This document shows, piece after piece, positions 1,419-16,076 of a stretch of 16,076 bases of DNA; the stretch's first letter is position 1, and each line of letters begins with the position of its first letter. The position numbers and the translations under genes are program-made. The notes below the pieces were generated by a model that was not told the DNA's origin, did no database searches, and saw only the letters and a list, made by a program, of their open reading frames with translations. This DNA comes from a virus (Duplodnaviria; Heunggongvirae; Uroviricota; Caudoviricetes), in IMG/VR virus record IMGVR_UViG_2541047946_000010; one strand, given 5' to 3'.

Positions 1419-2489
1419 TTATTTGATTTCAATTTTGTCCCACTCCCTGCCTCTGTCATCACGATACTGTGATGCCATGGTGTCCGACTTATGCCCGAGA
1501 AGATGTTGAGCAAACTTATCGCTTATCTGCTTCTCATAGAGTCTTGCAGACAAACTGCGCAACTCGTGAAAGGTAGGCGGATCCCCTTCGAAGGAAAGAC
1601 CTGATGCTTTTCGTGCGCGCATAAAATACCTTGATACTGTGCCGGATGAAAGCGGTTCGCGACGAGTAGATGCAATTATGGTTTCTCCGCCAAGAATCTC
1701 TTTGCATTTATCAAGTGTTTCCTTCATTGATATTCCGAGAGCATCAACATGCAATGCTGTTGGGATGGCAATTTTTACGCCTGTTTTGCTTTGCTCGACA
1801 TAAAGATATCCATCTACGATATCAGACCACTTCATTTCGCATAAATCACCAACTCGTTGCCCGGTAACAACAGCCAGTTCCATTGCAAGTCTAAGCCAAC
1901 ATGGTGATGATTCTGCTGCTTGATAAATTTTCAGGTATTCGTCAGCCGTAAGTCTTGATCTCCTTACCTCTGATTTTGCAGCGCGAGTGGCTGCGACCGG
2001 GTTTGTTGTTATATGGCCTTCAGCCATAGCCTCTCGGAATGCATCGCTCAGTGTTGATCTGATTAACTTGGCTGATGCCGCCTTTCCCTCGTCTATGTAT
2101 CCATTGAGCATTGCCGCAATTTCTTTTGTGGTGATGTCTTCAAGTGGAGCATCAGGCAGACCCCTCCTTATTGCTTTAATTTTGCTCATGTAATTTATGA
2201 GTGTCTTCTGCTTGATTCCTCTGCTGGCCAGGATTTTTTCGTAGCGATCAAGCCATGAATGTAATGTAACGGAATTATCACTGTTGATTCTCGCTGTCAG
2301 AGGCTTGTGTTTGTGTCCTGAAAATAACTCAATGTTGGCCTGTATAGCTTCAGTGATTGCGATTCGCCTGTCTCGGCCTAATCCAAACTCTTTACCCGTC
2401 CTTGGGTCCCTGTAGCAGTAATATCCATTGTTTCTTATATAAAGGTTAGGGGGTAAATCCCGGCGCTCATGACTTCGCCTTCTTCCCAT
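1419..2489 (-). CDS. int: Tyrosine integrase, lambda Int type
   Basis: 356-aa ORF; N-terminus MGRRRSHERRDLPPNLYIRNNGYYCYRDPRTGKEFGLGRD and C-terminal catalytic region (HELRSL...LLGH...Y) recognised as lambda Int; sits directly next to attL. Confidence 0.97.
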   Translation of the reverse strand: MGRRRSHERRDLPPNLYIRNNGYYCYRDPRTGKEFGLGRDRRIAITEAIQANIELFSGHKHKPLTARINSDNSVTLHSWLDRYEKILASRGIKQKTLINYMSKIKAIRRGLPDAPLEDITTKEIAAMLNGYIDEGKAASAKLIRSTLSDAFREAMAEGHITTNPVAATRAAKSEVRRSRLTADEYLKIYQAAESSPCWLRLAMELAVVTGQRVGDLCEMKWSDIVDGYLYVEQSKTGVKIAIPTALHVDALGISMKETLDKCKEILGGETIIASTRREPLSSGTVSRYFMRARKASGLSFEGDPPTFHELRSLSARLYEKQISDKFAQHLLGHKSDTMASQYRDDRGREWDKIEIK

Positions 2490-2685
2490 TTCTGATCCTC
2501 TTCAAAAGGCTACCTGTTACTGGTCGATTTAAGTCAACCTTTACCGCTGATTCGTGGAACAGATATTCTCTTCCATCCTTAACCGGAGGAGGGAATATCC
2601 TGCATTCGCGCACCCATCGACGAACTGTTTCAAGGCTTCTTGGGCGTCGCTGGCGAGCGTTCCACTCCTGAAGTGTCAAGTACAT
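2467..2685 (-). CDS. xis: Excisionase Xis
   Basis: 72-aa ORF MYLTLQEWNARQRRPRSLETVRRWVRECRIFPPP... recognised as lambda Xis; its 3' end overlaps the int start by 23 nt, as in lambda. Confidence 0.95.
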   Translation of the reverse strand: MYLTLQEWNARQRRPRSLETVRRWVRECRIFPPPVKDGREYLFHESAVKVDLNRPVTGSLLKRIRNGKKAKS

Positions 2686-2712
2686 CGCAAAGTCTCCGCA
2701 ATTACACGCAAG

Positions 2713-2732
2713 AAAAAACCGCCATCAGGCGG
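2713..2732 (-). terminator. Intrinsic terminator on minus strand between the 55-aa ORF and xis
   Basis: Minus-strand RNA would read CCGCC-UGAU-GGCGG followed by UUUUUU (plus-strand AAAAAACCGCCATCAGGCGG); the stop codon of the 55-aa ORF lies in the loop. Confidence 0.4.
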
Positions 2733-2892
2733 CTTGGTGTTCTTTCAGTTCTTCAATTCGAATATTGGTTACGTCTGCATGCGCTATCTGCGCCCATATC
2801 ATCCAGTGGTTATAGCAGTCGTTGATGTTCTCTGCTTCGATAACCCTGTTGAATGGCTCTCCATTCCATTCACCTGTGACTCGGAAGTGCAT
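2725..2892 (-). CDS. Small hypothetical protein, 55 aa (lambda xis-ea8.5 interval ORF)
   Basis: ATG at 2892 to TGA at 2725, translated by hand as MHFRVTGEWNGEPFNRVIEAENINDCYNHWMIWAQIAHADVTNIRIEELKEHQAA; below the 60-aa cut-off of the supplied ORF track; position matches a small ORF in lambda. Confidence 0.5.
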   Translation of the reverse strand: MHFRVTGEWNGEPFNRVIEAENINDCYNHWMIWAQIAHADVTNIRIEELKEHQAA

Positions 2893-2980
2893 TTATCATC
2901 TCCATAAAACAAAACCCGCCGTAGCGAGTTCAGATAAAATAAATCCCCGCGAGTGCGAGGATTGTTATGTAATATTGGGT

Positions 2981-3262
2981 TTAATCATCTATATGTTTTG
3001 TACAGAGAGGGCAAGTATCGTTTCCACCGTACTCGTGATAATAATTTTGCACGGTATCAGTCATTTCTCGCACATTGCAGAATGGGGATTTGTCTTCATT
3101 AGACTTATAAACCTTCATGGAATATTTGTATGCCGACTCTATATCTATACCTTCATCTACATAAACACCTTCGTGATGTCTGCATGGAGACAAGACACCG
3201 GATCTGCACAACATTGATAACGCCCAATCTTTTTGCTCAGACTCTAACTCATTGATACTCAT
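2981..3262 (-). CDS. ea8.5: Ea8.5-like protein (Cys/His-rich, putative zinc-binding)
   Basis: 93-aa ORF MSINELESEQKDWALSMLCRSGVLSPCRHHEG...CPLCTKHIDD, recognised as lambda Ea8.5; in the expected position upstream of xis. Confidence 0.85.
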   Translation of the reverse strand: MSINELESEQKDWALSMLCRSGVLSPCRHHEGVYVDEGIDIESAYKYSMKVYKSNEDKSPFCNVREMTDTVQNYYHEYGGNDTCPLCTKHIDD

Positions 3263-3367
3263 TTATAAACTCCTTGCAATGTATGTCGTTTCAGCTAAAC
3301 GGTATCAGCAATGTGAACCGCCCCGGGAATCCTGGAGACTAAACTTCCTGAGAAAGAGGTAAACAGG

Positions 3368-3694
3368 ATGACTAAAAATACTCGTTTTTCCCCTGAAGTC
3401 CGTCAACGGGCAGTCCGTATGGTTCTGGAAAGTCAGGGCGAATATGACTCACAATGGGCGACAATTTGTTCCATTGCTCCAAAGATTGGCTGTACGCCGG
3501 AGACTCTGCGTGTCTGGGTTCGCCAGCATGAGCGGGATACCGGGGGCGGTGATGGAGGGCTCACCACCGCTGAACGTCAGCGTCTGAAAGAGCTGGAGCG
3601 TGAAAATCGTGAACTGCGCCGCAGTAACGATATCCTTCGCCAGGCTTCCGCTTATTTTGCGAAGGCGGAGTTCGACCGCCTCTGGAAAAAATGA
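3368..3694 (+). CDS. IS3-family transposase OrfA (helix-turn-helix and leucine-zipper part)
   Basis: 108-aa [33 protein letters not shown]... recognised as IS629/IS1203-group OrfA; ends in an A6 run (AAAAAA at 3686-3691) that overlaps the orfB start. Confidence 0.93.
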
Positions 3695-4581
3695 TGCCAC
3701 TGCTGGATAAGCTGCGTGAGCAGTACGGGGTCGGACCGCTATGCAGCGAACTGCATATTGCCCCGTCAACGTATTACCACTGTCAGCAACAGCGACATCA
3801 TCCGGATAAACGCAGTGCCCGTGCGCAGCGCGATGACTGGCTGAAGAAAGAGATACAGCGCGTATACGATGAAAATCACAAGGTATACGGTGTGCGTAAA
3901 GTCTGGCGTCAGTTGTTACGGGAAGGTATCAGAGTGGCCAGATGCACTGTGGCACGTCTCATGGCGGTTATGGGACTTGCCGGTGTTCTCCGGGGTAAAA
4001 AGGTCCGTACGACCATCAGCCGGAAAGCCGTTGCCGCAGGCGACCGCGTAAACCGTCAGTTCGTGGCAGAACGACCTGACCAGCTGTGGGTGGCTGATTT
4101 TACTTACGTCAGCACATGGCAGGGCTTCGTCTATGTGGCGTTCATCATTGATGTGTTTGCCGGATACATTGTGGGGTGGCGGGTCTCATCGTCCATGGAG
4201 ACGACATTCGTGCTGGATGCACTGGAGCAGGCGTTATGGGCCCGTCGACCGTCCGGCACGGTCCATCACAGTGATAAAGGTTCTCAGTATGTATCGCTGG
4301 CCTACACACAGCGGCTTAAGGAAGCCGGATTACTGGCATCAACAGGAAGTACAGGCGACTCGTATGACAACGCGATGGCGGAGAGCATCAATGGTCTTTA
4401 CAAAGCGGAGGTAATACACCGTAAGAGCTGGAAAAACCGTGCAGAAGTGGAACTGGCCACACTCACGTGGGTGGACTGGTATAACAATCGACGATTGCTG
4501 GAAAGGCTGGGCCATACTCCTCCGGCAGAAGCAGAAAAAGCTTATTATGCTTCCATCGGAAACGATGATCTGGCAGCCTGA
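3691..4581 (+). CDS. IS3-family transposase OrfB (DDE catalytic domain), in -1 frame relative to orfA
   Basis: 296-aa ORF; DDE residues visible in [16 protein letters not shown] and [12 protein letters not shown]; starts with ATG overlapping the orfA TGA, consistent with programmed -1 frameshift fusion typical of IS3 elements. Confidence 0.93.
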
Positions 4582-4623
4582 GTTCACAGATAAAATACTC
4601 TCCAGGAAACCCGGGGCGGTTCA

Positions 4624-5469
4624 GAGCGTAATGTGGCAGATCTCGATGATGGTTACGCCAGACTATCAAATATGCTGCTTGAGGCTTATTCAGGCGCAGA
4701 TCTGACCAAGCGACAGTTTAAAGTGCTGCTTGCCATTCTGCGTAAAACCTATGGGTGGAATAAACCAATGGACAGAATCACCGATTCTCAACTTAGCGAG
4801 ATTACAAAGTTACCCGTCAAACGGTGCAATGAAGCCAAGTTAGAACTCGTCAGAATGAATATTATCAAGCAGCAAGGCGGCATGTTTGGACCAAACAAAA
4901 ACATCTCAGAATGGTGCATCCCTCAAAACGAGGGAAAATCCCCTAAAACGAGGGATAAAACATCCCTCAAATTGGGGGATTGCTATCCCTCAAAACAGGG
5001 GGACACAAAAGACACTATTACAAAAGAAAAAAGAAAAGATTATTCGTCAGAGAATTCTGGCGAATCCTCTGACCAGCCAGAAAACGACCTTTCTGTGGTG
5101 AAACCGGATGCTGCAATTCAGAGCGGCAGCAAGTGGGGGACAGCAGAAGACCTGACCGCCGCAGAGTGGATGTTTGACATGGTGAAGACCATCGCGCCAT
5201 CAGCCAGAAAACCGAATTTTGCAGGGTGGGCTAACGATATCCGCCTGATGCGTGAACGTGACGGACGTAACCACCGCGACATGTGCGTGCTGTTCCGCTG
5301 GGCATGCCAGGACAACTTCTGGTCCGGTAACGTGCTTAGCCCGGCCAAACTCCGCGACAAGTGGACCCAGCTCGAAATCAACCGTAACAAGCAACAGGCA
5401 GTCGTGACAGCCAGCAAACCAAAACTCGACCTGACAAACACAGACTGGATTTACGGGGTGGATCTATGA
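4624..5469 (+). pseudogene. O: Replication initiator O, 5'-truncated by the IS (first ~20 codons and promoter missing)
   Basis: The reading frame runs straight out of the IS right end (GGTTCA|GAG CGT AAT GTG GCA GAT CTC = ERNVADL...); remaining 281 codons match lambda O from residue ~21 to the C-terminus (…DWIYGVDL); first in-frame starts are GTG 4633 and ATG 4672; no upstream pR or ribosome-binding context. Confidence 0.85.
4918..5050. repeat. ori-lambda: four iterons (each an inverted repeat of TCCCTCAAAACGAGGGA type) plus adjacent AT-rich unwinding region
   Basis: Four tandem ~19-24-bp repeats (ATCCCTCAAAACGAGGGA / AAATCCCCTAAAACGAGGGATAAA / ACATCCCTCAAATTGGGGGATTGCT / ATCCCTCAAAACAGGGGGAC) followed by an A-rich tract (AAAAGACACTATTACAAAAGAAAAAAGAAAAGATTATT), located inside O as in lambda. 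Confidence 0.85.
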
Positions 5470-6167
5470 AAAACATCGCCGCACAGATGGTTAACTTTGA
5501 CCGTGAGCAGATGCGTAGGATCGCCAACAACATGCCGGAACAGTACGACGAAAAGCCGCAGGTACAGCAGGTAGCGCAGATCATCAACGGTGTGTTCAGC
5601 CAGTTACTGGCAACTTTCCCGGCGAGTCTGGCTAACCGTGACCAGAACGAACTGAACGAAATCCGCCGCCAGTGGGTTCTGGCTTTCCGGGAAAACGGGA
5701 TCACCACAATGGAACAGGTTAACGCAGGAATGCGCGTAGCCCGTCGGCAGAATCGACCATTTCTGCCATCACCCGGGCAGTTTGTTGCATGGTGCCGGGA
5801 AGAAGCATCCGTTATCGCCGGACTGCCAAACGTCAGCGAGCTGGTTGATATGGTTTACGAGTATTGCCGGAAGCGAGGCCTGTATCCGGATGCGGAGTCT
5901 TATCCGTGGAAATCAAACGCGCACTACTGGCTGGTTACCAACCTGTATCAGAACATGCGGGCCAATGCGCTTACTGATGCGGAATTACGCCGTAAGGCCG
6001 CAGATGAGCTTGTCCATATGACTGCGAGAATTAACCGTGGTGAGGCGATCCCTGAACCAGTAAAACAACTTCCTGTCATGGGCGGTAGACCTCTAAATCG
6101 TGCACAGGCTCTGGCGAAGATCGCAGAACTCAAAGCTAAGTTCGGACTGAAAGGAGCAAGTGTATGA
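5466..6167 (+). CDS. P: Replication protein P (DnaB helicase loader)
   Basis: 233-aa ORF MKNIAAQMVNFDREQMRRIANNMPEQYDEKPQ... recognised as lambda P; its ATG overlaps the O stop (ATGA). Confidence 0.95.
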   Translation: MKNIAAQMVNFDREQMRRIANNMPEQYDEKPQVQQVAQIINGVFSQLLATFPASLANRDQNELNEIRRQWVLAFRENGITTMEQVNAGMRVARRQNRPFLPSPGQFVAWCREEASVIAGLPNVSELVDMVYEYCRKRGLYPDAESYPWKSNAHYWLVTNLYQNMRANALTDAELRRKAADELVHMTARINRGEAIPEPVKQLPVMGGRPLNRAQALAKIAELKAKFGLKGASV

Positions 6168-6454
6168 CGGGCAAAGAGGCAATTATTCATTACCTGGGGA
6201 CGCATAATAGCTTCTGTGCGCCGGACGTTGCCGCGCTAACAGGCGCAACAGTAACCAGCATAAATCAGGCCGCGGCTAAAATGGCACGGGCAGGTCTTCT
6301 GGTTATCGAAGGTAAGGTCTGGCGAACGGTGTATTACCGGTTTGCTACCAGGGAAGAACGGGAAGGAAAGATGAGCACGAACCTAATTTTTAAGGAGTGT
6401 CGCCAGAGTGCCGCGATGAAACGGGTATTGGCGGTATATGGAGTTAAAAGATGA
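6164..6454 (+). CDS. ren: Ren protein (protection from Rex exclusion)
   Basis: 96-aa ORF MTGKEAIIHYLGTHNSFCAPDVAALTGATV... recognised as lambda Ren; ATGA overlap with the P stop. Confidence 0.9.
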   Translation: MTGKEAIIHYLGTHNSFCAPDVAALTGATVTSINQAAAKMARAGLLVIEGKVWRTVYYRFATREEREGKMSTNLIFKECRQSAAMKRVLAVYGVKR

Positions 6455-6480
6455 CCATCTACATCACTGAGCTAATAACA

Positions 6481-6510
6481 GGCCTGCTGGTAATTGCAGG
6501 CCTTTTTATT
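6481..6510 (+). terminator. Intrinsic terminator, lambda tR2 equivalent (between ren and ninB)
   Basis: GGCCTGC-TGGTAATT-GCAGGCC hairpin followed by TTTTTATTT on the plus strand. Confidence 0.6.
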
Positions 6511-6527
6511 TGGGGGAGAGGGAAGTC

Positions 6528-6968
6528 ATGAAAAAACTAACCTTTGAAATTCGATCTCCAGCACATCAGCAAAACGCTATTCACGCGGTACAGCAAATTC
6601 TTCCAGACCCAACCAAACCAATCGTAGTAACCATTCAGGAACGCAACCGCAGCTTAGACCAGAATCGAAAGCTTTGGGCTTGCCTTGGTGACGTCTCTCG
6701 TCAGGTTGAATGGCATGGTCGCTGGCTGGATGCAGAAAGCTGGAAGTGTGTGTTTACCGCAGCATTAAAGCAGCAGGATGTTGTTCCTAACCTTGCCGGG
6801 AATGGCTTTGTGGTAATAGGCCAGTCAACCAGCAGGATGCGTGTAAGCGAATTTGCGGAGCTATTAGAGCTTATACAGGCATTCGGTACAGAGCGTGGCG
6901 TTAAGTGGTCAGACGAAGCGCGACTGGCTCTCGAATGGAAAGCGCGATGGGGAGATCGGGCTGCATGA
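6528..6968 (+). CDS. ninB: NinB (Orf recombination mediator family)
   Basis: 146 aa from ATG 6528 (MKKLTFEIRSPAHQQNAIHAVQQ...), with a purine-rich ribosome-binding site GGGAGAGGGAAG upstream; the ORF-track start at 6510 is a TTG extension; recognised as lambda NinB. Confidence 0.9.
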   Translation: MKKLTFEIRSPAHQQNAIHAVQQILPDPTKPIVVTIQERNRSLDQNRKLWACLGDVSRQVEWHGRWLDAESWKCVFTAALKQQDVVPNLAGNGFVVIGQSTSRMRVSEFAELLELIQAFGTERGVKWSDEARLALEWKARWGDRAA

Positions 6969-7492
6969 CTATCAAATCAAATACGCCAGCACACGACAAG
7001 GACTGCTGGCAAACGCCGCTTTGGCTTTTTGATGCACTGGATATTGAGTTTGGATTCTGGCTGGATTCGGCAGCGAGCGACAAAAATGCTCTGTGCGCTC
7101 ACTGGCTAACTGAGGACGACGACGCGCTCAATTCTGAGTGGGTAAGCCACGGTGCAATCTGGAATAACCCACCGTACAGCAATATCAGGCCGTGGGTGGA
7201 AAAAGCCGCTGAGCAGTGTATACAACAGCGACAGACGGTAGTGATGCTTGTGCCAGAGGATATGTCTGTCGGATGGTTCAGCAAGGCTCTGGAGAGTGTT
7301 GACGAAGTTCGTATTATCACTGATGGACGGATTAATTTTATCGAACCATCGACAGGGCTGGAGAAGAATGGAAACAGCAAAGGCTCCATGCTGCTGATTT
7401 GGCGACCGTTCATCAGTCCTCGACGGATGTTTACTACCGTATCCAAAGCGGCATTGATGGCGATCGGGCAGGGCGTCAGGAGGGCTGCATGA
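6965..7492 (+). CDS. Phage orphan DNA N6-adenine methyltransferase (Dam-like)
   Basis: 175 aa from ATG 6965, which overlaps the ninB stop (ATGA); contains NPPY catalytic motif (WNNPPYS) and an upstream DxFxGxG-like region ([17 protein letters not shown]); occupies the position of ninC/ninD in lambda. Confidence 0.82.
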
Positions 7493-7665
7493 GACGACAG
7501 CGACGAAGCATCACCGACATAATCTGCGAAAACTGCAAATACCTTCCAACGAAATGCTCCAGAAATAAACGCAAGCTAATCCCAAAAGAATCTGACGTAA
7601 AAACCTTCAATTACACAGCCCACCTGTGGGATATCCGGTGGCTAAGATATCGTGCGAGGAAATGA
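7489..7665 (+). CDS. ninE: NinE
   Basis: 58 aa from ATG 7489 ([29 protein letters not shown]...), ATGA overlap with the methyltransferase stop; recognised as NinE; the longer ORF from 7399 in the track is an in-frame upstream extension. Confidence 0.8.
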
Positions 7666-8009
7666 CAATGGATTATTCACAGTTAAGTGATTTTGAAATT
7701 AACAGAATGGTAGGAGACATAATTTTTAAAGGCCTTTGGGCAAGTAAACCGGAAACATCAGGGAATAACACCAACAAATGGTATTACGGAAATGCTGATA
7801 CAACTTTTGAGCCATTAAATCATTTGCCTGACTACTGCAATGATCCGAGCGCTTCATGGCCGATTATTGAGAAATACAGGATTTCTATCTTAGACCAGTT
7901 AACTGAATGGTGTGTGGATGCAAAAGGCGTAAGCCCAATATTTGATACCAGACCTCTCCGCGCCGCCATGATTGTCTTTCTCCTGATGCAGGAGGCCAAT
8001 AATGCTTAG
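7662..8009 (+). CDS. Hypothetical acidic protein of unknown function (nin-region accessory ORF)
   Basis: 115 aa from ATG 7662, overlapping the ninE stop ([26 protein letters not shown]...); translational coupling with neighbours argues for a real gene; no recognisable motif; lambda has no counterpart between ninE and ninF. Confidence 0.6.
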
Positions 8010-8196
8010 CCCATCTCAATCCCTTCAATACCTGAAAGAAAGCATAGAGCGGGCTTCAATGTGCACAGAGTGGATTCTATCTAGGTTTAGCGCATACAGA
8101 AGATTGCCGGTAAAGGGCATGCCAAGCAAGTCGATGCTGCATATGCAAAAGAATGCGCGCTGGAAGGTATGGCGAGAACACAGGTTATGTGGCTAA
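8002..8196 (+). CDS. NinF-like small protein with divergent C-terminus (possible mosaic or frameshifted remnant)
   Basis: 64-aa ORF; the first ~18 residues ([18 protein letters not shown]) resemble lambda NinF, the rest does not; a different frame over 8091-8216 encodes ...[28 protein letters not shown], which I recall as the C-terminus of DLP12 YbcO (DUF1364). Confidence 0.4.
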
Positions 8197-8215
8197 AAGA
8201 GGGGGTTATTAAGGC

Positions 8216-8578
8216 GTGAATACCTACAGCATCACATTACCCTGGCCTCCGAGCAATAATCGCTATTACCGCCATAATCGCGGGCGCACGCACGTCAGCG
8301 CAGAGGGGCAGGCATACCGCGATAACGTCGCCCGAATCATTAAAAACGCAATGCTGGATATCGGCCTGGCTATGCCTGTGAAAATCCGCATTGAGTGCCA
8401 CATGCCGGATCGCCGTCGCCGTGACCTGGATAATCTGCAAAAAGCCGCTTTTGACGCACTCACTAAAGCAGGTTTCTGGCTGGATGATGCTCAGGTCGTT
8501 GATTACCGCGTTGTGAAGATGCCTGTTACCAAAGGTGGGAGGCTGGAACTGACCATCACCGAAATGGGGAATGAATGA
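8216..8578 (+). CDS. rusA: Holliday-junction resolvase RusA
   Basis: 120-aa ORF with GTG start, [41 protein letters not shown]..., recognised as RusA of DLP12/phage 82 type; it occupies the place of ninG/rap in lambda. Confidence 0.93.
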
Positions 8579-8715
8579 TGTTTGAGTTTAATATGGCAGA
8601 ACTTCTTCGCCACCGCTGGGGGCGTCTGCGCTTATATCGTTTCCCCGGTTCTGTTTTGACCGATTACCGAATACTGAAGAATTACGCCAAAACCCTGACA
8701 GGAACAGGAGTATGA
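8575..8715 (+). CDS. ylcG: Small protein YlcG-like (46 aa)
   Basis: Hand translation from ATG 8575 gives [46 protein letters not shown], stop at 8713-8715; overlaps the rusA stop; matches my recollection of DLP12 YlcG; below the ORF-track cut-off. Confidence 0.6.
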
Positions 8716-8800
8716 AGTCAGAGATAACAATCAACTAATACTGTTTTGTTGATTTTTGCTTGTAATTGGCGTTCTGGTCTGATTTTTGTGGAGTAAGTTG

Positions 8801-9184
8801 ATGCGTGATATTCAGATGGTTCTTGAGCGTTGGGGTGCGTGGGCGGCTAATAATCATGAAGATGTGACCTGGTCGTCCATTGCCGCCGGTTTTAAGGGAT
8901 TAATTCCTTCAAAAGTAAAATCTCGCCCGCAATGTTGTGACGATGACGCGATGATCATTTGCGGGTGCATGGCCCGTCTGAAAAAGAACAACAGCGATTT
9001 ACACGATTTATTAGTAGATTATTATGTATGTGGTATGACATTCATGTCACTGGCAAGTAAGCATTGCTGCTCGGATGGTTATATCGGGAAAAGGTTACAG
9101 AAGGCTGAGGGCATAATTGAAGGGATGTTAATGGCATTAGATATCCGGTTAGATATGGATATCGTTGCTAATAATTCTAATTGA
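8801..9184 (+). CDS. Q: Late-gene antiterminator Q (short QuuD/phage-21-like type)
   Basis: 127 aa from ATG 8801 with GGAG 7 nt upstream ([24 protein letters not shown]... with Cys-rich [12 protein letters not shown]); the ORF-track start at 8786 is a TTG extension; lies immediately upstream of the late promoter region and lysis genes. Confidence 0.85.
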
Positions 9185-9202
9185 TATGCAATTGTTTACT
9201 AA

Positions 9203-9235
9203 AAGTTATTAAAAATGGGGCGTGGAAACGCCCCC
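9203..9235 (-). terminator. Intrinsic terminator on minus strand, likely 3' end of the porin transcript
   Basis: Minus-strand RNA would read GGGGCG-UUUCCA-CGCCCC followed by AUUUUUAAUAACUUUU. Confidence 0.45.
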
Positions 9236-9321
9236 AAAATAAAGGGTAATATATAACAGAAGGTTTATATAGTAAGAAGCAAGGTAGTGCTTCTAAAGGA
9301 AGTGGCTTGAGGGCTCCACTT

Positions 9322-9361
9322 ATATGTTGCGGAGGCAAAGCCTCCCGCAACATATCTTTTT
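9322..9361 (+). terminator. Intrinsic terminator on plus strand downstream of Q (tR'-like); also a 3' stem-loop of the convergent porin gene
   Basis: ATATGTTGCGGAGGC-AAA-GCCTCCCGCAACATAT (about 15-bp stem with one bulge) followed by CTTTTT. Confidence 0.6.
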
Positions 9362-9372
9362 CGTAAGTCAGA

Positions 9373-10455
9373 TTAGAACTGATAAACCAGACCTACAGCG
9401 ACGATGTCGTCGGTATCAATACCAGCTGTTTTGGTAAACTTACTATCGTCAATTAAGTTGATTTTGTAATCAACAAAAGTAGACATGTTTTTATTAAAGT
9501 AGTAAGTAGCACCGACATCGACATACTTGACTAAGTCTCGGTCACCATGAACACCAAGGTCTTTACCTTTTGACTGAAGGTAAGCAACAGATGGGCGCAG
9601 ACCGAAGTCAAACTGATATTGTGCTACTGCTTCAAAGTTTTGTGCTTTGTTTGCAATATGGTTATTACCAAAAACGGTCATATTCTGAGTTTCAGAATAT
9701 GTGGTAGCCAGATAGATATTGTTCGCATCATATTTCAGGCCTGCAGCCCATACTTCCGCATTTTTGCCGGAGGCATTGAATTTGCTCTTACCATAGGCGA
9801 CCTGACCGTCAGTGCGATCTGATTTAGCATAGGTTGCACCCACGCCGAATCCTTCATACTCATAAGTAGTGGAGAAACCGAAACCATCACCATTGGCTTC
9901 AGTTACGTCAGTGCGGTCATTTTTACCCTGATACTGAGCAGCAAAGTTCAGGCCATCGACCAGACCAAAGAAGTCGTTGTTACGATAAGTTGCAACACCA
10001 GTAGTGCGACCAGTCATGAACACATCTGTTTGGGTCCAGGTATCACCACCGAATTCTGGCAGAACGTCAGTCCACGCACCGATGTCGTATGCTACACCGT
10101 AGTTACGGCCGTAATCGATGGAGCCGTAATCACCAAATTTCAGGCCTGCAAATGCAAGACGGGTTTTGTCTTTGGAAGAACCTTGAGATTCAGCACGGTT
10201 GCCTTTGAATTCATATTCCCACTGACCGAAACCAGTCAGTTGATCGTTGATTTGGGTTTCACCTTTGAAGCCAAGACGGGCATAAGTAGTATCACCATCA
10301 TCTGCATCATTAGAGGAGAAGTAGTGCTTGGCATTAACTTTCCCGTATAGATCCAGCTTGTTACTGTCTTTATTATAAATTTCAGCTGCCTGAGCAGACA
10401 TCGCCATCAGTACTGATGCAGCTACAGCAGAAATTGCCACTGTTAATTTTTTCAT
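9373..10455 (-). CDS. nmpC: Phage-borne OmpC-family general porin (NmpC/Lc-like moron)
   Basis: 360 aa from ATG 10455 with AAGGG ribosome-binding site; signal peptide [23 protein letters not shown] followed by [17 protein letters not shown]-terminal ...VGLVYQF with terminal Phe; classic 16-strand porin hallmarks; the upstream Met at 10515 lacks a ribosome-binding site and is rejected. Confidence 0.92.
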
Positions 10456-10880
10456 TGTACGCCCTTTTTTTGAACTATTATTAAAAAATGATGTCACTGC
10501 GCGATAAATATTCATCTAATCAATGTGATTATTTCAAGATGTAAGTTTTAGTTTCTCATTTAATTTGTGAAGTAGATCTCTATTTTTATCTGAACCTTTT
10601 CTATCTAATCCTATTCATGGCTCTTGTCTGAACAAAAATAAATCTATTAGCTAATTTATATTAATGGCACTTATTTATAAGTGCTCTATAATTCTTTAGC
10701 TTAATTTAAACAAACTAAAAATAACATCGGAAATTATTAACTGATTATTTGTTGAAGTTTTCTTATGTATTTGTGGTGGTGTTTTGAACACTCGGTGGCA
10801 TTCTCACAAATATCATTTAGTAGTTTACGTACGTAAAAAATTGGTTATGCTGTTAAGAGTGGTTACTTCGTCACACAGCT
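10456..10880 (-). promoter_or_regulatory. AT-rich porin upstream regulatory region (promoter not precisely mapped)
   Basis: About 425 bp of visibly AT-rich non-coding DNA upstream of the porin start, contrasting with flanking phage genes; typical of horizontally acquired morons and of porin control regions. Confidence 0.35.
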
Positions 10881-10881
10881 T

Positions 10882-10912
10882 AAACCCGCCGTCGAGCGGG
10901 TTTTTCCATTTT
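10882..10912 (+). terminator. Intrinsic terminator on plus strand upstream of the lysis cassette
   Basis: AAACCCGC-CGTCGA-GCGGGTTT followed by TTCCATTTTTT. Confidence 0.5.
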
Positions 10913-11043
10913 TTGAGTCTCGATATTAGCTGATAACCCAATACCTGAGTTATTCACTGACTCCGAATCTGTTACGTTTCTGCCTTTATTGCGATACGTA
11001 ATATCCCCTTAATTTACACCCGCTTTGTCTGCGAGGTGGGGTT

Positions 11044-11259
11044 ATGAAATCCATGGATAAGTTAACAACGGGTGTCGCCTATGGCACCTCAGCAGGTAGT
11101 GCCGGTTACTGGTTTTTACAGCTGCTCGATAAAGTCACGCCCTCACAGTGGGCAGCAATAGGTGTGCTGGGTAGCCTGGTATTTGGCCTGCTGACGTACC
11201 TGACAAACCTTTATTTCAAGATTAAAGAAGATAAGCGCAAGGCTGCGAGAGGTGAATAA
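11044..11259 (+). CDS. S: Class II holin (pinholin, phage 21 S type) with dual-start motif
   Basis: 71 aa, [26 protein letters not shown]...; Met1-Lys-Ser-Met4 dual start; two hydrophobic segments; GAGGTGG ribosome-binding site; recognised as the S21/EssD family. Confidence 0.9.
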
Positions 11260-11756
11260 TGCCTCCATCATTACGAAAAGCCGTTGCTGCTGCTATTGGT
11301 GGCGGAGCAATTGCTATAGCATCAGTGTTAATCACTGGCCCAAGTGGTAACGATGGTCTGGAAGGTGTCAGCTACATACCATACAAAGATATTGTTGGTG
11401 TATGGACTGTATGTCACGGGCATACAGGAAAAGACATCATGCTCGGTAAAACGTATACCAAAGCAGAATGCAAAGCCCTCCTGAATAAAGACCTTGCCAC
11501 GGTCGCCAGACAAATTAACCCGTACATCAAAGTCGATATACCGGAAACAATGCGCGGCGCTCTTTACTCATTCGTTTACAACGTGGGTGCTGGCAATTTC
11601 AGAACATCGACGCTTCTTCGCAAAATAAACCAGGGCGATATCAAAGGCGCATGTGATCAGCTACGTCGCTGGACATATGCTGGCGGTAAGCAATGGAAAG
11701 GTCTCATGACTCGTCGTGAGATTGAGCGTGAAATCTGTTTGTGGGGTCAGCAATGA
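11259..11756 (+). CDS. R: SAR endolysin (T4-lysozyme-like muramidase with N-terminal signal-arrest-release domain)
   Basis: 165 aa; Gly/Ala-rich N-terminal transmembrane segment [20 protein letters not shown]; catalytic E-x8-D-x5-T pattern in [18 protein letters not shown]; start overlaps the holin stop (TAATG). Confidence 0.9.
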
Positions 11757-12214
11757 ACAGAGTAACCGCGATTATCTCCGCTCTGGTTATCTGCATCATC
11801 GTCTGCCTGTCATGGGCTGTTAATCATTACCGTGATAACGCCATTACCTACAAAGCCCAGCGCGACAAAAATGCCAGAGAACTGAAGCTGGCGAACGCGG
11901 CAATTACTGACATGCAGATGCGTCAGCGTGATGTTGCTGCGCTCGATGCAAAATACACGAAGGAGTTAGCTGATGCGAAAGCTGAAAATGATGCTCTGCG
12001 TGATGATGTTGCCGCTGGTCGTCGTCGGTTGCACATCAAAGCAGTCTGTCAGTCAGTGCGTGAAGCCACCACCGCCTCCGGCGTGGATAATGCAGCCTCC
12101 CCCCGACTGGCAGACACCGCTGAACGGGATTATTTCACCCTCAGAGAGAGGCTGATCACTATGCAAAAACAACTGGAAGGAACCCAGAAGTATATTAATG
12201 AGCAGTGCAGATAG
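11753..12214 (+). CDS. Rz: Rz inner-membrane spanin
   Basis: 153 aa from ATG 11753, overlapping the endolysin stop; N-terminal transmembrane segment, coiled-coil-like middle; recognised as lambda-type Rz. Confidence 0.88.
11973..12155 (+). CDS. Rz1: Rz1 outer-membrane lipoprotein spanin, embedded in the +1 frame of Rz
   Basis: 60 aa [20 protein letters not shown]... with lipobox VVGC and proline-rich mature part ([16 protein letters not shown]); lies entirely inside Rz. Confidence 0.82.
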
Positions 12215-12245
12215 AGCTGCCCATATCGATGGGCAACTCATGCAA

Positions 12246-12539
12246 TTATTGTGAGCAATACACACGCGCTTCCAGCGGAGTATAAATGCCTAAAGTAATA
12301 AAACCGAGAAATCCATTTACGAATGTTTGCTGGGTTTCTGTTTTAACAACATTTTCTGCGCCGCCACAAATTTTGGCTGCATCAACAGTTTTCTCCTGTC
12401 CAATTCCCGAAACGAAGAAATGATGGGTGATGGTTTCCTTTGGTGTTACTGCTGTCGGTTTGTTTCCAACAGTAAACGTCTGTTGAGCACATCCTGTAAT
12501 AAGCATTGCCAGAGCGGCAGAAAACAACATTTTTTTCAT
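12246..12539 (-). CDS. bor: Bor lipoprotein (serum-resistance-associated)
   Basis: 97 aa from ATG 12539 (MKKMLFSAALAMLITGCAQQTFTV...), lipobox ITGC; recognised as lambda Bor; the ORF-track start at 12587 is an upstream extension. Confidence 0.9.
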   Translation of the reverse strand: MKKMLFSAALAMLITGCAQQTFTVGNKPTAVTPKETITHHFFVSGIGQEKTVDAAKICGGAENVVKTETQQTFVNGFLGFITLGIYTPLEARVYCSQ

Positions 12540-12655
12540 CTTATTATCCTGCATTGTTAAAAACGGCAGAATCCTATGTGACAACAATTAAACGATAGTT
12601 AAATGGATTGATGAAAATTAAAACTATATAGGTGGATGCTCAGCCTATTGGAGGA

Positions 12656-12664
12656 GGGGGGGGG
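12656..12664. repeat. G9 homopolymer tract within a purine-rich run (GGAGGAGGGGGGGGG)
   Basis: Nine consecutive G at 12656-12664, about 117 bp upstream of the bor start codon, in non-coding DNA. Confidence 0.9.
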
Positions 12665-12901
12665 CACTCAGAATCCTGTGGAATGAAATAAACCGCTCTA
12701 TCTGTCCATTACCCTTTTAGCTGCGCTGTATCGTCGCCGTATTCCCGCATTAACCATGACCGTAGCCCGACGGGGAATTCCTTCTGCGTGAGTGTGCGGG
12801 AATAATCAAAAACGATGCACACCGGGTTTTACTGTGCTGACAGACGCAGGGTTACCCTCATAGTCGCTTTTCCGGTGCGATGGTGGAAGAAACCGGGATG
12901 T

Positions 12902-13096
12902 TCATCCATCATCACTTTGGATTGATGTATATGCTCTCTTTTCTGACGTTAGTCTCCGACGGCAGGCTTCAATGACCCAGGCTGAGAAATTCCCAGACCC
13001 TTTTTGCTCAAGAGCGATGTTAATTTGTTCAATCATTTGGTTAGGAAAGCGGATGTTGCGGGTTGTTGTTCTGCGGGTTCTGTTCTTCGTTGACAT
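12902..13096 (-). CDS. Small basic protein, probable ribbon-helix-helix DNA binder (YlcI/DUF3950-like)
   Basis: 64-aa ORF MSTKNRTRRTTTRNIRFPNQMIEQINIALEQKGSGNFSAWVIEACRRRL...; basic N-terminus followed by an RHH-like strand-helix pattern; lies just upstream of cos on the opposite strand. Confidence 0.6.
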   Translation of the reverse strand: MSTKNRTRRTTTRNIRFPNQMIEQINIALEQKGSGNFSAWVIEACRRRLTSEKRAYTSIQSDDG

Positions 13097-13249
13097 GAGG
13101 TTGCCCCGTATTCAGTGTCGCTGATTTGTATTGTCTGAAGTTGTTTTTACGTTAAGTTGATGCAGATCAATTAATATGATACCTGCGTCATAATTGATTA
13201 TTTGACGTGGTTTGATGGCGTAGATGCACGTTGTGACATGCAGATGATA

Positions 13250-13470
13250 ATTATTATCATTTTGCGGGTCCTTTCCGGCGATCCGACAGGTTACGGGGCG
13301 GCGACCTCGCGGGTTTTCGCTATTTATGAAAATTTTCCGGTTTAAGGCGTTTCCGTTCTTCTTCGTCATAACTTAATGTTTTTATTTAAAATACCCTCTG
13401 AAAAGAAAGGAAACGACAGGTGCTGAAAGCGAGCTTTTTGGCCTCTGTCGTTTCCTTTCTCTGTTTTTGT
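13250..13470. other. cos: Cohesive end site cos: cosQ, cosN (GGGCGGCGACCT at 13296-13307) and cosB with three R elements
   Basis: Exact lambda 12-nt cohesive-end sequence preceded by ...CCGACAGGTTACG; downstream heptamers CGTTTCC (13348), GGAAACG (13409, inverted) and CGTTTCC (13449) match the R3/R2/R1 layout, with an AT-rich IHF-like tract between the first two. Confidence 0.88.
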
Positions 13471-13484
13471 CCGTGGAATGAACA

Positions 13485-14004
13485 ATGGAAGTCAACAAAA
13501 AGCAGCTGGCTGACATTTTCGGTGCGAGTATCCGTACCATTCAGAACTGGCAGGAACAGGGAATGCCCGTTCTGCGAGGCGGTGGCAAGGGTAATGAGGT
13601 GCTTTATGACTCTGCCGCCGTCATAAAATGGTATGCCGAAAGGGATGCTGAAATTGAGAACGAAAAGCTGCGCCGGGAAGTTGAAGAACTGCGGCAGGCC
13701 AGCGAGACAGATCTCCAGCCAGGGACTATTGAGTACGAACGCCACCGACTTACGCGTGCACAGGCCGACGCACAGGAGCTGAAAAATGCCAGAGACTCCG
13801 CTGAAGTGGTGGAAACCGCATTCTGTACTTTCGTGCTGTCGCGGATCGCAGGTGAAATTGCCAGTATTCTCGACGGGATCCCCCTGTCGGTGCAGCGGCG
13901 TTTTCCGGAACTGGAAAACCGACATGTTGATTTCCTGAAACGGGATATCATCAAAGCCATGAACAAAGCAGCCGCGCTGGATGAACTGATACCGGGGTTG
14001 CTGA

Positions 14005-14030
<26 letters not shown>
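13485..14030 (+). CDS. Nu1: Terminase small subunit Nu1
   Basis: 181-aa ORF MEVNKKQLADIFGASIRTIQNWQEQGMPVLRGGGKGNEVLYD... recognised as lambda Nu1 (winged-HTH N-terminus). Confidence 0.97.

Positions 14031-16076
<2,046 letters not shown>

Follow-up and report, generated by a model that had tools for sequence, protein, structure and literature searches.

The DNA examined in this work is a stretch of 16,076 nucleotides (IMG/VR record IMGVR_UViG_2541047946_000010; this whole stretch is called the window below), which holds a lambda/DLP12-like prophage adjoining ybhC, with the integrase at the left. In the nin region of this prophage an open reading frame (ORF) of 175 amino acids, here called dam, lies between ninB and ninE (Table 1). 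An earlier note, made from the sequence alone, had described the extent of this ORF, its NPPY motif and its two neighbours, joined to it by ATGA overlaps at both ends, and reading and translating the DNA bear out the description. The dam ATG (6965-6967) overlaps the ninB stop TGA (6966-6968; ATGA 6965-6968), and the ninE ATG (7489-7491) overlaps the dam stop TGA (7490-7492; ATGA 7489-7492). NPPY is found once in the translation, at residues 68-71, and the upstream and downstream neighbours match PF05772 (NinB, E=1e-54) and PF05322 (NinE, E=3e-40), respectively. The position between the replication genes and Q, on the same strand and tightly packed by ATGA overlaps, is that of a nin-region gene. 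Stop/start overlaps of this type recur in the window at 5466, 6164, 6965, 7489 and 8575, and are general in nin regions (PMC8022706). The overlaps invoked by the note are thus real; translational coupling itself is a reasonable expectation from them, and no special feature of dam. A longer in-frame reading from a GTG at 6905 (195 amino acids) was rejected, because homologues and the RefSeq annotation begin at the ATG at 6965. An antisense ORF of 115 amino acids (7099-7446) is treated as a chance occurrence.

The dam product belongs to a known methyltransferase family. It matches the Pfam family PF05869 ('DNA N-6-adenine-methyltransferase (Dam)'; E=2e-65, 220 bits against a cut-off of 28.1, profile positions 1-167 of 169) and the NCBIfam equivalog TIGR01712 ('phage N-6-adenine-methyltransferase'; E=2e-79, 264.8 bits against a cut-off of 97.05, positions 1-165 of 165), exceeding both curated cut-offs with full profile coverage, and hits phrog_111 ('DNA methyltransferase', 7e-88) in PHROGs. 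E-values of this size for the two profiles indicate that dam is not a chance ORF. The call as an N6-adenine DNA methyltransferase, made at first from the motif, is upheld by PF05869 and TIGR01712, and the hidden Markov model search against phage Dam families, which the note had proposed as a check, places the protein in a methyltransferase family.

The gene is also common. DNA at least 95% identical to dam occurs in 1,566 of 5,426 complete Escherichia coli genomes, where it is annotated 'phage N-6-adenine-methyltransferase', with 100% matches in strains LC-1302-2020 and MMC-J-0105. The ninB-dam-ninE segment has matches in 423 phage records, many Shiga toxin (Stx) phages among them, at 100% identity in phages 2G7b and PhiR11_1, and about 98% in mEp043, HK140, Sf101 and SfI. 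At the protein level (tblastn) the family extends to 1,910 phage records, including T1-like, Klebsiella, Vibrio, Lactococcus and Staphylococcus phages. The gene is therefore already known, being a routinely annotated part of lambdoid phages and E. coli prophages in thousands of records, and the novelty implied by the earlier note is absent. The protein database also holds fusion-like entries, which join the methyltransferase domain to NinE (233 amino acids, a cluster of 41 members) or to CII, RusA, NinB or Q domains. They may reflect frameshifts at ATGA overlaps, mosaic joints or gene-calling artefacts.

Genes around dam are, in order, O, P, ren, ninB, dam, ninE, ninX, a DUF1364 remnant, rusA, ylcG and quuD (Q), followed by a porin gene, lysis genes, bor/iss and the terminase genes. 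The neighbouring genes all have known phage functions, and no cognate endonuclease gene, of the kind which would make up a type II restriction-modification system, lies next to dam. A hidden restriction partner was rejected, since all neighbours of dam fall in known phage families. The interval 4596-16076 of the window is 99.9% identical to an annotated RefSeq locus without a nuclease partner, and the best PADLOC models for the protein are 'orphan methyltransferase' models. Neighbourhood and models thus agree with the term orphan used at the outset.

The recognition site of the enzyme is predictable. The dam protein is identical at 173 of 175 residues to orf32 (NP_050531.1) of the Stx2 phage VT2-Sakai (VT2-Sa), and the whole VT2-Sakai record carries no other annotated methyltransferase. 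The two genes differ by eight synonymous and two non-synonymous changes, and the resulting substitutions with respect to orf32 (D51 for A, N135 for K) lie outside the invariant or nearly invariant columns in an alignment of 29 homologues. The VT-2 enzyme, M.EcoVT2Dam, was reportedly cloned by Radlinska and Bujnicki in 2001. A DpnI/MboI-type assay has been applied by the same group to a different phage enzyme (PMC7556043). In one citing paper 5'-GATC-3' is given as the known target of M.EcoVT2Dam (PMC6602927), and in another VT-2 is listed among the phages with demonstrated GATC-methylating activity (PMC7139368). Given the near identity to orf32 and these reports, a GATC target can be inferred, and the enzyme most likely modifies the GATC adenine, as host Dam does. 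The opinion of the earlier note, that the protein does not disclose its target sequence, is contradicted by the same two lines of evidence, as far as the citing papers report them. M.EcoVT2Dam has the same length, and its gene occupies the same ninB-ninE slot with ATGA overlaps; the protein is also found in Phi24B, 933W-type and HK97-type phages. The setting differs, as the M.EcoVT2Dam gene resides in an Stx phage, and dam in a defective lambda/DLP12-like prophage.

Table 1. Position of dam, its motifs and the flanking features in the window
Feature	Positions	Strand	Description
dam	6965..7492	+	ATG to TGA, 175 amino acids; PF05869/TIGR01712 phage N6-adenine DNA methyltransferase
Q16-T17-P18	7010..7018	+	T17 and P18 invariant in 29 homologues
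L33-D34-S35-A36-A37	7061..7075	+	L33, D34 and A36 invariant in 29 homologues
NPPY catalytic motif IV, N68-P69-P70-Y71	7166..7177	+	All four residues invariant in 29 homologues
ninB/orf recombination mediator	6528..6968	+	Upstream of dam; PF05772; 96% nucleotide identity to lambda ninB
ninE	7489..7665	+	Downstream of dam; PF05322
Boundary repeat copy 1, GGGCTGCATGA	6958..6968	+	Last ninB codons and ATGA overlap with dam
Boundary repeat copy 2, GGGCTGCATGA	7482..7492	+	Last dam codons and ATGA overlap with ninE
Intrinsic-terminator-like hairpin and T-run	6480..6513 (hairpin 6480-6503)	+	Between ren and ninB
IS3-family element	3314..4623	+	1310 base pairs, 41-nucleotide terminal inverted repeats, orfA/orfB, ALIL frameshift pseudoknot

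A more distant member of the same family is the Dam of phage T1 (ST20, 237 amino acids; 33% identity over 158 amino acids, E=4e-27), which shares the TP, LDxAA and NPPY motifs with the window protein. Unlike the latter, T1 Dam is extended by 45 residues at the N-terminus and carries an insertion ahead of the last strands, and it comes from a virulent phage, in a different genomic context. It is annotated as similar to the Dam of Haemophilus phage HP2, is a characterised enzyme (Scherzer et al. 1987, as cited in PMC7139368), and appears in the list of phage GATC methyltransferases of the same paper. Likeness to the Dam enzymes of E. coli and T4 is found at the fold level only. A Pfam scan of the dam protein at E <= 0.01 returned PF05869 alone, and no match to PF02086, the family of the alpha-class enzymes E. 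coli Dam, T4 Dam and DpnM. Chains of these three enzymes were not found in searches of the PDB made with the protein (phmmer) and with a 29-sequence profile. They are about 100 residues larger (chains of 241-258 residues), and carry a separate DNA-recognition domain. 'Dam-like', as the protein had been called, is apt for the reported GATC target, which is in common, but not for ancestry, as homology in sequence to the E. coli and T4 enzymes is not detectable. The word should denote the same reported target, without implying an origin shared with host Dam; homology to the cellular enzyme is stated for T2 and T4 Dam only (PMC7139368).

In an AlphaFold2 model, obtained with the 29 homologues as input (predicted local distance difference test, pLDDT, 76; predicted template modelling score, pTM, 0.79), the protein adopts a class I S-adenosylmethionine (AdoMet)-dependent methyltransferase fold. 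NPPY comes directly after a beta strand (residues 64-67), and helices and strands then alternate in the usual way. Structures of matching fold are all remote and score weakly; DNA N6-adenine methyltransferases make up most of the top matches. The PDB sequence searches, run with protein and profile as above, returned no related solved structure for the family; matches to SdiA and to designed proteins were dismissed as due to chance. The order of T17-P18, L33-D34-x-A36 and N68-P69-P70-Y71 along the chain may be read as that of motifs X, I and IV in gamma-type enzymes. Between the LDxAA element and the strand preceding NPPY there are only some 30 residues, and the AdoMet-binding half of PF05869/TIGR01712 enzymes is shortened. 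Nothing like a separate target-recognition domain follows the core, and the protein is a single minimal catalytic domain. Recognition of DNA should therefore involve the catalytic domain itself, or oligomerisation.

The gene order in lambda is ninB, ninC, ninD, ninE. Since ninB (424 of 441 nucleotides identical) and ninE (162 of 177) of the window closely match their lambda counterparts, and the DNA in between is unrelated, the claim that dam replaces ninC/ninD is correct, and can be sharpened to a precise boundary. An exact direct repeat of 11 base pairs (bp), GGGCTGCATGA, brackets dam, and the two copies are the only ones in the window. The ninC-ninD segment of lambda fills the same slot and starts at the same GGGCTGCATGA boundary at the ninB end, but its genes are unrelated to dam (ninC is annotated as similar to phosphoadenosine phosphosulfate, PAPS, reductases), and it measures 1006 bp versus 524 bp. 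The ninB/dam junction of VT2-Sakai has GGGCTGCATGA as well; here the ninB alleles are unrelated at the nucleotide level (about 49% identity to the window), whereas identity rises to 98% in dam and is 94% in ninE. In some other phages the slot is empty. A synthetic ninB-ninE junction, built by deleting the DNA between the two repeats and then matched to phages, is contiguous in JEP4, CUS-3, HK106 and mEp234 (96-97% identity), whereas dam-carrying phages match it in two pieces. Junctions of the dam-less phages read ...GGGGAGACAGGGC(G/T)GCATGAGACGACAG..., which is the exact boundary predicted. The shared GGGCTGCATGA boundary and the dam-less junctions thus identify dam as an optional cassette, exchanged at a conserved boundary. 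Recombination at GGGCTGCATGA would swap the gene in or out between ninB and ninE. The cassette is a tidy case of known lambdoid mosaicism, and no new principle.

The prophage which hosts dam has been decapitated. An insertion sequence (IS) of the IS3 family is joined directly to O, which presumably lacks about the first 21 codons of lambda O. On the other side of the IS, past the integrase and a short stretch, we take an ORF of 93 amino acids (2981-3262, minus strand) to be lambda ea8.5. The IS stands in for the prophage segment from ea8.5 to about codon 22 of O, and with it the cI repressor, cro, N, pL and pR have gone, pR and N being the normal promoter and antiterminator for dam; the prophage is defective for this reason. 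The terminator-like hairpin between ren and ninB is a strong one, and presumably sits at the position of lambda tR2. Transcripts coming from upstream need to read through it to reach dam, and no convincing promoter-like site was found between the hairpin and dam. Expression of dam at this locus could come only from IS read-through or weak internal promoters. A possibility is that IS read-through expresses dam constitutively, altering the dynamics of GATC methylation in the host. An effect on the methylome of the carrier strain is not to be assumed, because the prophage is defective.

The IS region varies among carriers. In strain LC-1302-2020 the same IS is inverted, and window positions 2293-3312 (from the int 5' end to the IS, including the 93-amino acid ORF) are missing; the remainder of the locus is 99.9-100% identical to the window. 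These differences fit an IS-mediated rearrangement. Among the matches listed, the IS/O junction of the window is found in one piece in only one complete genome, MMC-J-0105. An Rfam scan found no RNA family in or near dam, the sole match in the window being the ALIL pseudoknot of the IS (3649-3765). GATC sites number 42 in the window, as against the 62-72 expected from composition, one of them in the IS and one in dam; the depletion is mild, window-wide and not specific to dam.

All this makes it very probable that dam encodes an orphan AdoMet-dependent DNA N6-adenine methyltransferase of the PF05869/TIGR01712 family with a GATC target, carried as an optional nin cassette and probably poorly expressed at this locus. 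M.EcoVT2Dam and T1 Dam belong to the same family, of which the window gene encodes a stand-alone member. In an intact lambdoid phage dam would be part of the delayed-early, N-dependent pR operon, downstream of a tR2-like terminator, and the enzyme would be made after infection or induction, when replication of the phage DNA outpaces methylation by host Dam. Host Dam leaves the virion DNA of lambda and P22 under-methylated, perhaps because it is outrun by replication (PMC8022706), and a GATC methyltransferase made by the phage would close the gap. Completing GATC methylation of the phage DNA is the likely job of the enzyme. The phage may thereby be shielded from methylation-sensitive GATC endonucleases, escape MutH cutting at un- or hemi-methylated GATC, or gain Dam-dependent regulation. 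The identical gene of Phi24B undergoes a significant change in expression on induction (PMC3342100).

Several points weigh against this picture. The identification of orf32 with M.EcoVT2Dam rests on orf32 being the one annotated methyltransferase of VT2-Sakai, the GATC specificity of M.EcoVT2Dam is reported second-hand, through citing papers, and the GATC call for the exact sequence of the window comes from comparison with a near-identical enzyme. The structural model is weak at residues 1-5 and at 35-45, the loop behind the putative motif I, and the alignment underlying it is shallow, with 29 sequences that are no less than 59% identical. Assignment of Q16-T17-P18 to a putative N-terminal 'xTP' motif X of gamma-type amino-methyltransferases, and of LDSAA (33-37) to a putative equivalent of the AdoMet-binding motif I, is ours. 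Low expression in the decapitated prophage is a prediction, by which dam would probably be a passenger with little transcription. What phage Dam enzymes do is, more generally, still poorly understood (PMC7556043).

It could be argued that dam encodes an active enzyme of another, or relaxed, specificity, up to a nearly non-specific methylation of adenines. Small changes alter specificity in some methyltransferase families (PMC6602927, discussion), non-specific phage adenine methyltransferases exist (PMC7556043), M.EcoGI and M.EcoGII being listed as such (PMC6602927), and the dam protein lacks a separate recognition domain. Yet only two substitutions, neither at a conserved column, set dam apart from orf32, and T1 Dam, a listed phage GATC methyltransferase, still aligns at 33% identity. 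To our knowledge, moreover, the known non-specific adenine methyltransferases belong to families other than PF05869/TIGR01712. We regard a specificity other than GATC as very improbable. That the protein mainly methylates RNA, or some other non-DNA substrate, is barely conceivable: the fold matches are all weak and remote, DNA N6-adenine methyltransferases prevail among the best, and methylation of GATC in DNA is reported for the 99%-identical enzyme and for T1 Dam.

More serious is the view that dam is here a silent relic, intact but unexpressed, which adds nothing to the methylation of the cell. The IS has replaced everything from ea8.5 to the start of O, so that pR, N and the immunity region are lost, a terminator-like hairpin precedes ninB with no strong promoter-like site between it and dam, and decay has touched the nin region elsewhere, as in the DUF1364 remnant. 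Against this, the reading frame is undamaged and does not differ from the RefSeq copy, the transposase genes of the IS are oriented toward O-P-ren-nin, making read-through possible, and the Phi24B homologue has been detected in lysogen cultures (PMC3342100). Chances for silence at this locus seem to us evenly balanced. The question bears on expression at this site only, and leaves the identity of the gene untouched.

Other features of the prophage deserve mention. Between ninX and rusA (about 8002-8219) there are an ORF of 64 amino acids without Pfam match and a DUF1364 pseudogene fragment missing its N-terminus, the latter transferred from the RefSeq annotation. Both point to additional decay, or to mosaic joints, in the nin region. 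A porin gene of the OmpC/NmpC type (9373-10515, minus strand) lies immediately downstream of the gene for the Q antiterminator, in opposite orientation, and a Bor/Iss lipoprotein gene (12246-12587, minus strand) comes after the lysis genes. Porin and Bor/Iss genes are typical DLP12-like lysogenic-conversion cargo.

The earlier note is borne out in what it observed, and for the most part in its interpretation. As a discovery, dam carries little weight. It is a standard, correctly annotated gene, a near-identical enzyme has been characterised, and the results are mainly negative or clarifying. It does illustrate cleanly how conserved ATGA boundary sequences serve in the exchange of genes of the nin region, and its target, GATC, can be predicted. 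The questions of interest concern the family as a whole: which benefit a phage draws from such an enzyme in a Dam-positive host, and how so small a methyltransferase recognises GATC. The family may read this site in a manner unlike that of the Dam enzymes of known structure, for instance by loops in the catalytic domain or as a dimer, a notion we hold as rather unlikely.
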